Below the pieces are notes generated by a model. The model saw only the letters and a list, made by a program, of their open reading frames with translations, was not told the origin of the DNA and did no database searches. Shown one piece after another: positions 10,242 through 15,677 of a stretch of DNA of 28,023 nucleotides (position 1 is its first letter; each line of letters begins with the position of its first letter). The translations under genes and the position numbers were made by a program. The stretch spans positions 1 through 28,023 of the forward strand of contig CAYODC010000005.1 of the NCBI GenBank assembly GCA_964402575.1. The letters run 5' to 3'. The stretch comes from an uncultured Verrucomicrobiota bacterium (lineage in GTDB: Bacteria > Verrucomicrobiota > Kiritimatiellia > CAIQIC01 > Lenti-01).

Positions 10242-10808
10242 TACCGTTTAGGGCGTTTTCTCTTCAAAAGTCCCAAATGAAGGGGTTGTGGTCTCACAAT
10301 GGGTCAGGGGGTGGGATCAGGCCTGAAGCCCACCCCAATTCCTGTGCAGTGACAAAATACCTGCCTAAAGAGAACTGTAGGCCAGCCGAAATTGTGAAAT
10401 GGGGTTGGAGGGCTAGTCGCCCCAAGGAATCCTCCCCCCCGGCCATTTTCTCGATTTTTTGTAAGAAACATCATCTCTCTATGAATCCGAAAATGGCTCC
10501 CTCGAAAAGTCCTGGGCAGCCTTGTGGCTTAGGTGACCAATATCTAGGCCATTTTCCCGCAAGACACCCCCGCCCCTCTTCCTGGGGGAAATCACAGACA
10601 TTTGCTTTTCAGCCTGGATCGGCCAAGACGCCCTTCCGCCTGAAGACTTCTAGCCCAATAGCGACCCAACCTGGAAAATTCTGTCCGATAATTGGGTCAG
10701 TATCACCTAAATGGCGGAACAAGTTGGACCCGTCCTGCGAGGAACTAGGTCAGTTTCTCTTCTTGTTGACCCAGTTAGGAGGCCTTTTGAAGGACGAGTG
10801 CAGGAAGA

Positions 10809-11471
10809 TCAGGCGACCGAGATGGCGGAAGCGACGCTTTTCCGTCTCGGGCTTTGCAGGGAACCGAGGAGCTTCTCCATGGCATTCATGCCGGCGATGG
10901 ACTGCTCGGGAGAAATATCAGCATACACTTGAGTAACCGTCAGGCTGGAGTGGCCAAGTTGTTTCTGAACCAACCTCAAAGAATTGGTCGCCTCGTAGAG
11001 CACCGTGGCGTTGGTATGCCTGGCGTCATGTAGCCGGTGATTGGGAACGTACTTCTTCCACCTTTTATACACGCCACTTGGCGCATACTTTGGACTGCGC
11101 TCGCTCCGAAGGAAGAAGTCTTCTGGCGATTGAATCTCGCCCCGTTCGACCTTCCACTTCATATACCAGCGAACATCGGAAGCGAAGCCTTTAGGCAAAT
11201 GGACATGGCGAGTCTTTCCGCCCTTACCCCTGCGGACCAAAAGACGGCTGTTTCCCCCGAAGATCGAAAAGTCCCCGCACCGGAGTTCGCAGACCTCGAA
11301 ACGCCGAAGGCCTGTATAGATGAAGGTCTGGATAATCATCCAATCTCTGATGAGCTGGGGCCTTTTCTTGGCAATTCCAAGCGTTTTGATTTCCTCGGCA
11401 CGCAAGAGCAGCGCGGTCAGTTCCTGCCGGTTGAGGAATTTTTCGGGCGTGATCTCCCAGTTCGGGTTCAT
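10809..11471 (-). CDS. Catalytic-domain-only tyrosine recombinase (220 aa)
   Basis: TGLRRFEV (R), RGKGGK (K), HRLHDARH (HxxR), LGHSS, TQVY (Y). Begins directly at the catalytic domain (PEKFLNRQEL). ATGA overlap with the ruvB-like stop. Confidence 0.95.
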   Translation of the reverse strand: MNPNWEITPEKFLNRQELTALLLRAEEIKTLGIAKKRPQLIRDWMIIQTFIYTGLRRFEVCELRCGDFSIFGGNSRLLVRRGKGGKTRHVHLPKGFASDVRWYMKWKVERGEIQSPEDFFLRSERSPKYAPSGVYKRWKKYVPNHRLHDARHTNATVLYEATNSLRLVQKQLGHSSLTVTQVYADISPEQSIAGMNAMEKLLGSLQSPRRKSVASAISVA

Positions 11472-12442
11472 GCTGATACCTCCTGTAGAGTGGCAAACAT
11501 CTCTCTGGCCTTTTCCGTCGCCACCCGTCCCCTGGACGACCGGCGGAGAAGTCCTTCCCGGATGAGATGGGGCTCCATGGCCTGTTCAATGGTCTCGATG
11601 GTTTCATTCAACGCTGCCGAGACCGACGTGAGCCCCACCGGCTGGTCGGCTTGGATGAGCATCCCCAGATACCGCCGATCCTGCCCCGTCAGCCCAGAGG
11701 CGTCCACGTCCCGCATAGCATACGCTTCCTGAACGGCGTTGAGATCAGGGGCGACTCCCAGGCCCGACGAATACTCAACCAGCCAGCGCAGATGGCCGAT
11801 TGCTATGCGAGCAGTGGAACGAGACCGCTTGGCTACTTCCATGGCGACGCCTAGTTCCAATTCGACGCCCATGGCCTTGGAGGCCCGGAGGACAATGCGA
11901 GTCAGGTCGTCGAGGCTGTATGGCTCAAGGGTCAGCTCATGAGCAAAACGGCTACGCAATGGCGCAGATACCAGGCCAGACATCGTAGAGGCTCCCAATA
12001 AAGTGAAAGGCGGAATGGCGACCATCTCGGTGGCTGGCTTTGCCTGGACGCCCAGGGCCCGCATGAAGTCGGAGGACTCTGTCTTGACCACCGGAACCAA
12101 ATTGTCCTCCATCGCCGGATACAGGATTTCTTCCACCGATCTGGCCATCGCGTGAATCTCATCGATGAAGAGGACATCCAGGGGCTTCAGGGAGCGAAGG
12201 AGTCCAATGAGTTGCTCTGGAGCCTGGAGATTTCCGCCGATGGTCTCCACCAGCTTACCTCCAATTTCGTTGGCGACAATTCTGGCCAGCGTCGTTTTCC
12301 CCAATCCAGGGGGTCCAGAAAGAAGGACATGGCTGACAGAGGTCTTCTTGGTCTTGGCAGATCGGCAGAGGATCTGGAGGACTTGCCTGACACGCTCTTG
12401 GCCAATGAAGTCATTGAGGCTGGATGGGCGGATGCATTGCAT
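11468..12442 (-). CDS. ruvB: RuvB-like Holliday-junction branch-migration AAA+ ATPase (324 aa)
   Basis: RPSSLNDFIGQ, GPPGLGKTT (Walker A), LFIDEIH (Walker B), EEILYPAMED, PPFTLLGA, PLRSRF (Arg finger), STARIA (sensor II), C-terminal wHTH PVGL...EPHLIREGLLRRSSRGRVAT. Confidence 0.93.
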   Translation of the reverse strand: MQCIRPSSLNDFIGQERVRQVLQILCRSAKTKKTSVSHVLLSGPPGLGKTTLARIVANEIGGKLVETIGGNLQAPEQLIGLLRSLKPLDVLFIDEIHAMARSVEEILYPAMEDNLVPVVKTESSDFMRALGVQAKPATEMVAIPPFTLLGASTMSGLVSAPLRSRFAHELTLEPYSLDDLTRIVLRASKAMGVELELGVAMEVAKRSRSTARIAIGHLRWLVEYSSGLGVAPDLNAVQEAYAMRDVDASGLTGQDRRYLGMLIQADQPVGLTSVSAALNETIETIEQAMEPHLIREGLLRRSSRGRVATEKAREMFATLQEVSA

Positions 12443-12587
12443 ATCTTTACCTATTGATCTTTAGTGCAACAGATCCCAGTGAAAACGGGTCGCTGGCCCC
12501 TGGGACGAATCAAGGCCTGTTTTCCCGAGAAGTGACATAATTTTTTCCATAAAAAACCTGCGTGGGCGGTGTCCCGTAGAATTACAT

Positions 12588-12812
12588 CTATGTGCCAACG
12601 CCACATCCCAGGCCCCGCCTTTGCCCGCCGATTGGTGCAGATAACCCGTCCAAACGCTTCCGCCTGATGGCATTGGTTGGCTTTATCATCGCCAATCCCG
12701 TTCGATTCTGGGCGATGGCGGTCACATTCGGCTCGGAAACCGCCGATAAATATATGAAGCCAGCATTCTGCCTCAGGGGATCTGCCTCAAATCTGGAGCC
12801 CTTCCGCATCAT
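12588..12812 (-). CDS. Small basic hypothetical protein (74 aa)
   Basis: AGGAGG SD 6 nt before ATG, 10 bp after the stop of the 112-aa gene. No family recognised. Confidence 0.55.
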   Translation of the reverse strand: MMRKGSRFEADPLRQNAGFIYLSAVSEPNVTAIAQNRTGLAMIKPTNAIRRKRLDGLSAPIGGQRRGLGCGVGT

Positions 12813-12822
12813 AAATGTCCTC

Positions 12823-13161
12823 CTATCCCTGCCCGAGCCTGGCCATTGCCCGATCCATTGCTTCGCCCAATTGTCGCCTGAAAGTATTTGGATAGTCCCC
12901 CAGGAACTCCCCCTGCATAATAATCACAAGGCTGACGGTTGCCATCCGAGTAGCGGAATCCAGCAACTGACGTTGAAAGACGTACGCGACGAATATTCGT
13001 ATGAGGTAGTTCCTCCCCGCCATGAGCCTTGCAAGAGTCCGCCACGCCATATGTCGTTGTTGCTGGTCGTCCGAGACTCCCGCGACTGCCTCTGCAAGTT
13101 CGCAGGTCCACTGGCGGAAGGCTTGGGTCTGCAAATTGTCGTCTAGGGGAATAGGGTTCAT
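12823..13161 (-). CDS. Small helical hypothetical protein (112 aa)
   Basis: AGGAGG SD upstream; starts 21 bp after the ClpX-like stop. Amphipathic helical composition. Confidence 0.75.
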   Translation of the reverse strand: MNPIPLDDNLQTQAFRQWTCELAEAVAGVSDDQQQRHMAWRTLARLMAGRNYLIRIFVAYVFQRQLLDSATRMATVSLVIIMQGEFLGDYPNTFRRQLGEAMDRAMARLGQG

Positions 13162-13182: not shown

Positions 13183-14850
13183 TTATGCCAGCCCTTCCGC
13201 CCCTTCGGTCTCGTTGATGGCCTTCCTTATGTCTGCCAGTCTGACAACGATGTCCCCAGGCTTGTCGTCGTAGAGATGTCCTTCGACCAGGGTTCCTAGG
13301 ATAGTTTTCACCGCTCTGGAATATCCACGAATTTCGCAAGCCCAGTTGGCAAGGTACTGAATGGCTTCATCCGTCAAGTCGAGACTCATGCCGAAGGACT
13401 GAAGAAAGGCGTTTTGGCGGGCAAGCAGGCCTGTCCTTGGGTGAGAAGTGATGCGGACGATCTGCTCGGGAGTCGGATCTGGGAGGACAATGATCGCCCC
13501 GATCCGATTGACGATCTGCTCCATGAAGCCATATTTCACAAGGGCGTCTCGGATATCACTCCTTGCAGCCTTTGCTCCGGCCGACCCAAAGCCAAGCCCC
13601 GAAGACTTGCGGTTGCCATCAGCCAGCAGATCCCGAAGCCCCTGAAAGGCTCCGCAAAGCAGAAAATTTGTTTCCCAGCAGTCCAGCACGCCCATATATG
13701 GTGTATTTGATCGCCTTGAACCCAACGGCAGCTTGCATCCCTCCAGAGGCTTCAGCAATTCGGCCTGGATTCCTCGGCCCTGAGGGTCTGTCGATGAATG
13801 GCCTCCGTCACCCTTGGCGCAGAGCTTGTCAAATTCGTCCATGACCAGGATGCCCTTCTGGGCTTCTGACGGCTTGGTCTTGTTGGCCAGCAGGCCGAAG
13901 AAACACTCGTCAATGCTCAACCCGACATAGGAAGCCTGAGAAACCCCTGACATATCGGCTACCGAATATGGGAGTCCGCTGACTCTGGCGAATGATTCTG
14001 CCATATGTGTTTTTCCGCTTCCGCTGGAGCCGATTAAAAGGGTCACAACTGGAGAAACACTTGGCCTGACTCCCTTACGAATCTGCTCCAGACGACGCAT
14101 ATGGAGACTCATTTGGGCGGAAAAACGACGCAAGGGGACATCTATGCCGATGACCTCGTTTTTCAAGGTATCGAAAATTCCCATGGCCGTCAGCAGCTTG
14201 GGGGTCTCGCCGGGCTTCTGGACGGAAGGGGGAGGTTCTGCATTGCGTGATACTGTTGCAGACTTATGAGATTCGGAAATATTCTTCCGCACCCATTCAT
14301 CCCTGTCCCTCTGAAGGCTCTCTGCATCCCAAATCACAGGAAGGTTGTCGTTGCTCAGAAACTTGGACAATTTCCATGCAGGCAACAACTCGCCTCCTGC
14401 GTAATCGGTTTCCTTGTAGCAGATGGCATCCTTTCTACCAACGAGCATTCGGATCGTCCTGCGACTTTCAAGATGAAGGCTCATATCTCCTAGCGAGGCC
14501 GCCGTTGCAGCTCTTGCAACCGATATTCCCGAACGCTCTGTGGTCAAAGAACCCCAGCCAATGTAGGAGATGATTCTCAAGGCAATATGGTCGCCGAGAA
14601 CCTGGTCGCCCCTGATCTCTAATAGCGATCGCAACAGCCGTTGGTTGGTGTCATAGGCGGCAGTCTCTATTCGCTTCTCAATAGCCTCGATTTCAGAACG
14701 AAGCCTAGAAGCCTCATGAGGCCGAATAGGTCTCGTCAGCCCAAGTTCGCTCTGGGGGAACGCATACTGATGCAGGAGTTGGCCAAGCCGAAGGACATCG
14801 GCAGTGGCCTGCTCTCTGGTGGGCATTGATTCTTTGGACTCTTCAGCCAT
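13183..14850 (-). CDS. ClpX-like AAA+ ATPase with an unrecognised ~215-aa N-terminal region (555 aa)
   Basis: EVIG, LLIGSSGSGKT (Walker A), SYVG pore loop (cf. GYVG), ILVMDEFDK (Walker B), GIQAELLK (cf. GVQQALLK), FLLCGAF (cf. FICGGAF), GLGFG loop, LVKYGFMEQIVNRI. No C4 zinc-binding domain. Confidence 0.88.
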   Translation of the reverse strand: MAEESKESMPTREQATADVLRLGQLLHQYAFPQSELGLTRPIRPHEASRLRSEIEAIEKRIETAAYDTNQRLLRSLLEIRGDQVLGDHIALRIISYIGWGSLTTERSGISVARAATAASLGDMSLHLESRRTIRMLVGRKDAICYKETDYAGGELLPAWKLSKFLSNDNLPVIWDAESLQRDRDEWVRKNISESHKSATVSRNAEPPPSVQKPGETPKLLTAMGIFDTLKNEVIGIDVPLRRFSAQMSLHMRRLEQIRKGVRPSVSPVVTLLIGSSGSGKTHMAESFARVSGLPYSVADMSGVSQASYVGLSIDECFFGLLANKTKPSEAQKGILVMDEFDKLCAKGDGGHSSTDPQGRGIQAELLKPLEGCKLPLGSRRSNTPYMGVLDCWETNFLLCGAFQGLRDLLADGNRKSSGLGFGSAGAKAARSDIRDALVKYGFMEQIVNRIGAIIVLPDPTPEQIVRITSHPRTGLLARQNAFLQSFGMSLDLTDEAIQYLANWACEIRGYSRAVKTILGTLVEGHLYDDKPGDIVVRLADIRKAINETEGAEGLA

Positions 14851-14951: not shown

Positions 14952-15497
14952 CTAGTCGAACTTGATCCGCAGGTTGTCCCCTTCACGAATCAATGCGAAG
15001 CCGTCACGGCAGGAGCGGTGTTTTCGCTCCGAATCGGTCGAGGCGGACAGGATCACGGCCAGATCGTACCGCGCATGGGTCTCATCCTTGCCATTGGCCT
15101 TGCTGAAAGCGCGAATGAGATCGGGCTTCCCGATGCCCTTGGAGCCTGCCGAGGCAATCAAATCCACCAGCAAACCATACGAACTTCCCTCCCTGAAAGG
15201 ATTCTTGGGGTGACGGGCGACAGTGGACTTCCTGGGGCTCTTTGCGGTCTTTTTGACAGCCTTCTGAGCCCGTTTTTCCTTCGGCGTCGCCACCAATCGT
15301 TCGGACTTCGCCGTCCCCGCCTTGTTCCCAGCCAGGATGGCCTCGATGCCAGGTACGGTCTCCCGCAGCTTCTTGGCCGTCGAACCCGACAACTTGTTTC
15401 CACCCCCAAGCAACCGATAGACTTCGGTGAGCGACTTGGGCGATTTGGATTCCAGAATCTCGACAATCTTCTCTTTCGACACTTCCATTGTAGACAT
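14952..15497 (-). CDS. Hypothetical basic protein (181 aa from ATG 15497), possibly DNA-binding
   Basis: AAGGAGG SD before ATG 15497. Two compact regions joined by a Lys-rich linker (KEKRAQKAVKKTAKSPRKS). Confidence 0.75.
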   Translation of the reverse strand: MSTMEVSKEKIVEILESKSPKSLTEVYRLLGGGNKLSGSTAKKLRETVPGIEAILAGNKAGTAKSERLVATPKEKRAQKAVKKTAKSPRKSTVARHPKNPFREGSSYGLLVDLIASAGSKGIGKPDLIRAFSKANGKDETHARYDLAVILSASTDSERKHRSCRDGFALIREGDNLRIKFD

Positions 15498-15677
15498 GAC
15501 AACCTCCTTGATGGTTGGTTGTGTCATATCGTGGAAGTGCAGTTCTGTAAGCTGCCTATTTTCGTGATTTCGCCACATTTTTCTGTGGAGTGAAAAACAG
15601 ACCTTCAGCCAGTCCAACCCACGCCTGGGCGATCTCCCAGATCGATTTTCCTGATGTTCAATAGGCGGATACTACGC

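Follow-up and report, generated by a model that had tools for sequence, protein, structure and literature searches.

RuvB is a textbook molecular motor that relies on RuvA, engaged at the presensor-1 hairpin, for its loading and its ATPase cycle. The hexameric double-stranded DNA (dsDNA) translocase FtsK, a RecA-fold motor, activates the tyrosine recombinase XerCD, and its gamma domain contacts XerD. Previous work showed that RuvA domain III docks on a composite, hydrophobic surface to which helix alpha3 of RuvB and the presensor-1 hairpin both contribute, and that this docking anchors the RuvB motor and stimulates its ATPase (PMC9477746). The hairpin, which spans L135-L152 in E. coli RuvB (PMC2628435), has been described as the interface with RuvA domain III in three studies (PMC9477746, PMC2628435, PMC4677358). 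Here we describe a RuvB-like AAA+ gene encoding 324 amino acids (aa) in a 28,023-nucleotide stretch from an uncultured Verrucomicrobiota bacterium (GenBank assembly GCA_964402575.1, contig CAYODC010000005.1, positions 1 to 28,023; hereafter, the window). The gene (11468-12442, minus strand), identified by its Pfam and NCBIfam matches and its fold, is an accessory paralogue that encodes an element-borne and otherwise intact RuvB motor. Its RuvA-facing side has been remodelled in a manner that defines a clade, and the gene is coupled to that of a tyrosine recombinase. A preliminary description of this DNA had drawn attention to the altered hairpin and had assigned the segment to the contact with RuvA domain III, in agreement with the docking surface described above.

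A remodelled RuvA-facing side in an otherwise intact RuvB motor

The window protein contains all three RuvB domains, as judged by Pfam (PF05496 RuvB_N, 1.7e-49; PF17864 AAA_lid_4, 1.1e-08; PF05491 RuvB_C, 2.6e-19). Its score of 313.7 lies above the cut-off of the NCBIfam RuvB equivalog NF000868 (282), and its score of 286 falls just below that of TIGR00635 (299.05). PADLOC returned only weak P-loop matches and PHROGs only matches of the clamp-loader type. Aligned by phmmer, the protein matched solved RuvBs over its full length, with scores of up to 226 bits, and an AlphaFold2 (AF2) model built from 21 clade sequences, with a predicted local distance difference test (pLDDT) of 89 and a predicted template modelling score (pTM) of 0.79, matched solved RuvBs in Foldseek at template modelling (TM) scores of 0.86-0.90. 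The residues of the ATPase cycle, i.e., the Walker A lysine (K49), Walker B (D94/E95), the sensor 1 threonine (T153), the arginine finger (R165), the sensor 2 arginine (R212), and the trans-acting E/D pair (E112/D113), are invariant or nearly so across the clade. In P. aeruginosa, R314, R317, and R319 of the head-domain beta-hairpin grip DNA (PMC10071043); the head-domain arginines R301, R304, and R306 are retained here, and these positions hold Arg or Lys in 27, 28, and 27 of 28 clade members, respectively. The conservation of these motif residues and head-domain arginines bears out the earlier view that the ATPase and winged-helix parts are intact. By its sequence, then, the protein retains what a hexameric, dsDNA-pumping RuvB requires.

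The exception lies in the presensor-1 hairpin. Minus-strand translation of 12014-12103 (residues 114-143) gave NLVPVVKTESSDFMRALGVQAKPATEMVAI between PAMED and PPFTL, a segment of 30 aa instead of 20, exactly as first read; GASTM comes after it. When the protein was aligned by phmmer with the solved E. coli and P. aeruginosa RuvBs, a net excess of 10 residues fell at the hairpin (gaps of 8 and 2). This excess, between AMED and PPFT, is the sole large indel of the N-domain relative to the solved RuvBs, and the same alignment confirmed that GATTR has become GASTM. In the core RuvBs of this genus and order, the segment is of the standard length of 20 aa, as in FAIDIVLDQGAHARSVRLNL, and GATTR is present. 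To compare hairpin lengths more widely, we took the 150 best representatives of 50%-identity clusters plus the window protein; the hairpin was exactly 20 aa long in 93 of these 151 proteins, and the lengths of the remainder were scattered between 10 and 50 aa. The figure of about 20 aa given earlier for E. coli RuvB is thus that of the solved structures, of the core RuvBs of the genus, and of most proteins compared.

The AF2 model contains both strands of the hairpin (residues 115-120 and 137-142), with a helix (residues 122-129) and a loop between them. Since both strands are kept and the helix and loop lie between them, the hairpin is predicted to be enlarged at its tip; of the original claim that it had been replaced and lengthened, the lengthening (by 10 residues) stands and the wholesale replacement does not. 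The inserted helix carries the motif ESSDFMRALG (residues 122-131; 12050-12079, minus strand), recognized in both the AF2 model and the clade alignment. In the alignment of 28 clade sequences, M127 and L130 were each conserved at 89% and G131 at 100%, and the best-conserved hairpin positions within the clade belong to this helix; the strands are variable, although they remain hydrophobic (LVPVV and EMVAI in the window protein). Across the clade, the insertion at the hairpin tip amounts to 8-13 residues with a conserved amphipathic helix motif.

The hairpin is accompanied by clade-wide changes elsewhere, two of which, the absence of Arg at the positions of DNA-contacting arginines, the preliminary description had missed. 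In a T. thermophilus RuvB-DNA structure, a second site of DNA engagement was reported, for which R101 (next to Walker B) and R104 are named in the text; the figure legends name R101 and R147 as DNA contacts, and R147 also forms an inter-protomer salt bridge (bioRxiv 10.1101/2022.09.22.509074). Alignment with solved RuvBs placed A98 (12149-12151, minus strand) at the Arg that follows DEIH, and M154, the M of GASTM (11981-11983, minus strand), at the Arg of GATTR. By motif position, A98 would therefore correspond to T. thermophilus R101 (E. coli R117), next to Walker B, and M154 to T. thermophilus R147, after sensor 1. Position 98 is occupied by a residue other than Arg in 27/28 clade members, compared to Arg in 79/93 canonical representatives, and position 154 is hydrophobic in 26/28 clade members, compared to Arg or Lys in 77/93 canonical representatives. 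Arg was found at neither position in any of the 119 complete proteins among the top database matches. A further scan for positions that are conserved in canonical RuvB yet different in the clade showed that a conserved Asp of alpha3 is replaced by Gln77 and that, in the lid helix after sensor 2, a conserved Arg is replaced by an invariant Trp220, another Arg by Val222, and a conserved Pro by Ala211. The lid helix (residues 206-225; about 11768-11827) reads RSRSTARIAIGHLRWLVEYS here and RGTPRIANRLLRRVRDFA in canonical RuvB. The change at Trp220 may re-tune contacts between subunits or may keep the paralogue from mixing with the host's RuvB.

The long-hairpin subfamily and its genetic neighborhood

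Among the 120 best database matches (50-92% identity), all 119 complete proteins had a hairpin of 30-34 aa, and in all of them the helix motif was close to D/E-F/L-M-K/R-x-L-G. In an exhaustive search of 50%-identity cluster representatives, about a dozen clusters carried the long-hairpin signature, and these were the top-scoring ones. A FastTree phylogeny was computed on 310 columns from which those of the hairpin had been taken out, with support values of the Shimodaira-Hasegawa-like (SH-like) type only; in this tree, the eight full-length long-hairpin representatives formed a single clade with a support of 99. Close relatives of the gene are found in metagenome-assembled genomes (MAGs) of uncultured Verrucomicrobiota. 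No clade member was detected by tblastn among INPHARED phages or PLSDB plasmids, where matches reached only ~40-43% identity, the level of canonical RuvB.

To place the gene relative to the host's own RuvB, a six-frame search was made of 40 related genomes, comprising 19 others of the genus and 21 that are more distant. A RuvB with 40-44% identity to the window protein was present in 19/19 of the former (41-44% for the core RuvBs of the genus) and in 20/21 of the latter. An extra copy, 83-85% identical to the window protein, was present in only two of the 40 (G001 and G011), so that the paralogue is carried by three of 20 genomes of the genus, counting that of the window, and is not a core single-copy gene. 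Both G001 and G011 are near-complete, encode a canonical RuvB that is 41-42% identical to the window protein, and have exactly one ruvA each, on a contig holding neither ruvB. In every carrier genome, the encoded RuvA includes domain III (the TIGR00084 match reaches position 201 of 202). The window's own genome is a 64%-complete MAG, in which ruvA lies on another contig and a canonical ruvB was not assembled. Since core RuvBs occur throughout the genus, the copy in G001 and G011 is an additional one, and the single ruvA is located elsewhere, the window gene is an accessory paralogue without a RuvA of its own. In the aligned core RuvBs of the 40 related genomes the hairpin was normal; similar hairpins in chromosomal, RuvA-linked RuvBs, which would have refuted the preliminary description, were not seen in this sample.

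Two observations on other ruv-like genes were made in these genomes. In the window's genome (G000), the matches to RuvC lie in two pieces in different frames (contig C428:424-856, L117; profile positions 1-77 and 89-148), which may reflect a frameshift or an error of MAG assembly. In G011, a third RuvB-like gene (312 aa, 30-32% identity) lies ~7 kb from the long-hairpin gene. Genes for a MoxR/AAA_5-like ATPase of 324 aa and a protein of 455 aa come after it, with stops and starts overlapping, and by appearance the three form a separate cassette (L023:13688-16961, contig C35).

Directly downstream of the RuvB-like gene in the window, and overlapping its stop by 4 bp, starts a gene for a short tyrosine recombinase (220 aa; 10809-11471, minus strand). 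The protein matches PF00589 over residues 23-188 (1.3e-22), and its catalytic residues R56, K83, H148, R151, H174, and Y183 are invariant in the recombinase alignment (A4). The catalytic domain begins at residue 23 of 220, and Pfam gave no Phage_int_SAM match, i.e., the core-binding (SAM-like) domain is absent. Wherever the sequence downstream of a clade member could be read, it encodes a catalytic-domain-only recombinase of 207-255 aa, and the two genes mostly overlap by 4 bp. These loci extend from close to distant relatives, as measured by the identity of the RuvB-like protein: L006 (86%), L024, L023, L007-L009 (~54%), L026 (49%), L027 and L028 (41%), L029 (40%), and L108 (33%). In L030, the next open reading frame (ORF) also overlaps by 4 bp and is cut by the contig end, and the contig of P0125 stops after the RuvB-like gene. 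The two nearest RuvB-like proteins outside the clade, P0171 (16-aa hairpin) and P0270 (20 aa), have no adjoining recombinase. The recombinase and RuvB-like families occur on the same contigs, and the linked recombinase was found in 4/401 sampled genomes of the phylum. Prediction of a complex between the RuvB-like protein (alignment A3) and the recombinase (A4) gave a score of 0.22, the mark being 0.32, a value that speaks neither for binding nor against it. No description of a module of a RuvB-like protein and a tyrosine recombinase was found in the literature, in an incomplete search that is weak evidence of novelty.

Two variants of this arrangement were seen. A gene for a RadC (JAB-like) protein lies between the RuvB-like gene and the recombinase in L007 (11008-11475), L008, and L009. 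In the only carrier found outside the genus (L114:2142-3633; G345, contig C1), the RuvB-like protein survives as a 205-aa C-terminal remnant beginning within the hairpin motif, with a transposase-like ORF just upstream on the opposite strand, and the recombinase is intact; this locus looks like a decaying copy.

The ~200 nt downstream of the recombinase stop (window 10620-10830) are conserved in four elements (alignment A5). Here, a repeat search found three copies of a 10-bp arm (10690-10776, assigned to neither strand), which read, on the coding strand, AACTGGGTCA (10767-10776), a 14-nt gap, TGACCTAGTT (10743-10752), a 43-nt gap, and TGACCCAATT (10690-10699). The arms form an inverted repeat that lies 33-120 bp past the stop, and the block is plausibly a recombination site, judging from its repeats and conservation.

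Another protein that travels with the RuvB-like and recombinase pair, and that the preliminary description lacked, is a conserved 181-aa winged-helix accessory protein (14952-15497, minus strand). Homologues occur in L006, L024, L023, L007, L026, L027, and L029, i.e., in eight loci including the window. In its AF2 model (pLDDT 80), a basic disordered linker joins a helical N-domain to a winged helix at the C-terminus; the protein belongs to no Pfam family, and Foldseek found nothing at E<=0.001, only weak and generic winged-helix matches. The ORF as annotated (14952-15617, minus strand; 221 aa) opens with a TTG that is probably too far upstream, and the ATG at 15497, yielding 181 aa, is the probable start because all homologues begin there.

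The genes upstream of the RuvB-like gene are less constant. A ClpX-like AAA+ gene (555 aa; 13183-14850, minus strand) is a frequent neighbor (L006, L024, L007, and L026); it was not found in L023, L027, L029, or L108, and was rejected as an obligate partner. The place upstream of the RuvB-like gene is taken in several loci by the gene of a ClpX-like ATPase, in L027 by that of a PD-(D/E)XK nuclease, and by others elsewhere. The 74- and 112-aa ORFs (12588-13161, minus strand), which had been suggested as a new partner of the motor, gave no blastp match at E<=1e-3 in any related locus and belong to no Pfam, NCBIfam, PADLOC, or PHROG family. Lacking homologues in related loci, they are poor candidates and were ruled out as a general partner; the 181-aa protein is a better third candidate. 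Upstream of the RuvB-like gene, the DNA aligned only patchily, for the most part between the window and L024. Patches of 12430-12830 (minus strand) resemble L024:7760-8130, including a part of the 74-aa ORF that encodes RKRLDGLSAPIGG, and bear no such resemblance to the other two elements; they may represent either a small gene or conserved non-coding DNA. The element also encodes a primase-helicase (DUF3987/PriCT_2) and a separate, full-length integrase.

A possible new anchor for the motor

The hairpin and alpha3 form the surface on which RuvA domain III docks, and the paralogue comes with no RuvA beyond that of the host. The motor has therefore most likely been redirected by the insertion, from the host's RuvA to an anchor encoded by the element, and would no longer rely on RuvA in its customary manner. 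With a probability of roughly 55%, we consider the long hairpin to be the hallmark of a monophyletic subfamily of RuvB paralogues on integrative or mobile elements, in Verrucomicrobiota and their kin, that has been retargeted in this manner. Of the candidate anchors, the recombinase, which is co-translated and would be bound at the conserved inverted repeat that follows its gene, ranks first and the winged-helix protein second. A ring so anchored could pump the flanking duplex, acting on the synapse or the Holliday junction of the recombinase, and thereby drive or bias the Holliday-junction step of site-specific recombination; alternatively, by analogy with FtsK and XerCD, it might align two sites and activate them. 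Given the primase-helicase and the additional full-length integrase that the element encodes, the purpose could conceivably be to resolve multimers of the element's replicating form, which is plausible but unsupported. The complete scheme, in which a RuvA-independent ring docks through its helix-tipped hairpin on the recombinase (or on the winged-helix protein) and powers or directs the Holliday-junction step, would constitute a previously undescribed system of motor-assisted site-specific recombination; we advance it tentatively, as less likely than not.

Several observations weigh against retargeting. The inserted part of the AF2 model has low confidence (pLDDT 66-74). RuvA docking may survive, since the two strands of the hairpin are retained together with much of the alpha3 pattern. 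Many other non-canonical RuvB-like proteins have hairpins of 10-50 aa, so that the site is generally plastic. A conserved gene order indicates co-function and not contact through the hairpin. Finally, since the window's genome is 64% complete and its canonical ruvB unassembled, the status of the paralogue as an additional copy rests on G001 and G011.

The paralogue might still use the host's RuvA and serve as an extra branch-migration motor, its tip insertion modulating the interaction or being a tolerated decoration. The carrier genomes do encode a RuvA with domain III, the hydrophobic strands persist in the model, the protein passes the NF000868 equivalog cut-off, and IncP-9 plasmids carry a RuvB that works with RuvA, although a plasmid ruvA is present there too (PMC2885752). 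We regard this explanation as unlikely, however: the insertion has a conserved motif of its own, with an invariant Gly, over a range of 33-92% identity, whereas canonical RuvBs are fixed at exactly 20 aa; alpha3 has changed as well, its conserved Asp being Gln at residue 77; and the constant partner gene of the clade is that of the recombinase and not ruvA. It is somewhat less likely still that the hairpin helix docks on the 181-aa winged-helix protein as a DNA or junction anchor that substitutes for RuvA, with the recombinase linked by pathway only. Although that protein is present in eight clade loci, shares long contigs with the RuvB-like and recombinase families, and has a two-domain build resembling DNA-binding proteins, with a basic linker, it went undetected in L108 and differs between loci in position and strand (the opposite strand in L027); moreover, it bears no likeness to the OB or HhH domains of RuvA and is never translationally coupled to the motor.

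The insertion could also serve self-assembly, by stabilizing contacts between rings or subunits so that the motor loads on DNA without a loader, and by excluding the host's RuvB subunits from the ring. Hairpins of the T. thermophilus RuvB dodecamer make hexamer-hexamer contacts (bioRxiv 10.1101/2022.09.22.509074), and the hairpin lies partly in the subunit interface (PMC4677358). Clade changes also fall at residues that the preprint names for inter-protomer salt bridges (the R147 position and a lid-helix Arg), and the same lid helix has the invariant Trp at residue 220. This mapping of T. thermophilus residues was drawn from alignments and not from a structure, however, and self-assembly would leave the strict coupling to the recombinase unexplained; it appears to us the least probable of the explanations considered.

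Comparison with known systems

Since the clade changes, in a conserved manner, the very element that binds RuvA and is hard-wired to a recombinase, it serves as a natural experiment in the re-targeting of an AAA+ DNA pump. A direct connection might emerge between a motor for branch migration and a site-specific recombinase, an enzyme that itself works by way of a Holliday junction, and the value of the system hinges on the putative interaction between the partners. As for annotation, the paralogue is unfit to be called the cell's RuvB, and should not be named as the housekeeping protein, because it lacks three housekeeping features: a hairpin of 20 aa, the pair of arginines in the N-domain, and the status of a single-copy core gene. 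The length and motif of the hairpin, together with the absence of Arg after DEIH and after sensor 1, provide a signature by which annotation pipelines could stop naming such element-borne paralogues as housekeeping RuvB.

Other unusual RuvB-like proteins share an altered presensor-1 hairpin (P0161, 34 aa; P0250, 38 aa; P0194, 50 aa; fused proteins, 16 aa). They differ from the clade in that their insertions are different, they are located elsewhere in the tree, and no short recombinase follows them. The two that were looked up (34 and 38 aa; L115:5001-7153 and L116:3207-4280), whose long insertions are unrelated, are on phage- or element-like contigs with no ruvA nearby. One gene is in a phage-like contig and overlaps by 4 bp with that of a 383-aa HTH protein, and the element that carries the other also encodes an excisionase-like HTH_17 protein, a resolvase, a DUF3987 helicase, and integrases. 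Since RuvB-like proteins with odd hairpins occur on phage and element contigs without ruvA, mobile elements seem, as a general route, to put the RuvB motor to new use by remodelling its hairpin.

Canonical RuvB (E. coli, T. thermophilus, S. thermophilus; PDB 9dx4, 1hqc, 1ixs, 7pbl) has in common with the paralogue the three-domain fold, ~40% identity, the ATPase motifs, the trans-acting E/D pair, and the DNA-binding arginines of the head domain. The paralogue differs in its hairpin (30-34 aa with a helical tip, compared to 20 aa), in the lack of Arg at the R101 and R147 positions, and in its changed alpha3 and lid helix; it is also accessory, element-borne, and coupled to a recombinase instead of partnered with ruvA. 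The IncP-9 plasmids pWW0 and pDTG1 likewise have a RuvB homologue on a mobile replicon, but there ruvA adjoins ruvB, whereas the present element has no ruvA and the neighbor is a recombinase (PMC2885752). With FtsK and XerCD the likeness is one of analogy only, in that a ring-shaped dsDNA pump would be paired with a Xer-like recombinase at a short inverted-repeat site; here, however, the motor is an AAA+ protein of the RuvB type, and its recombinase dispenses with the core-binding domain.

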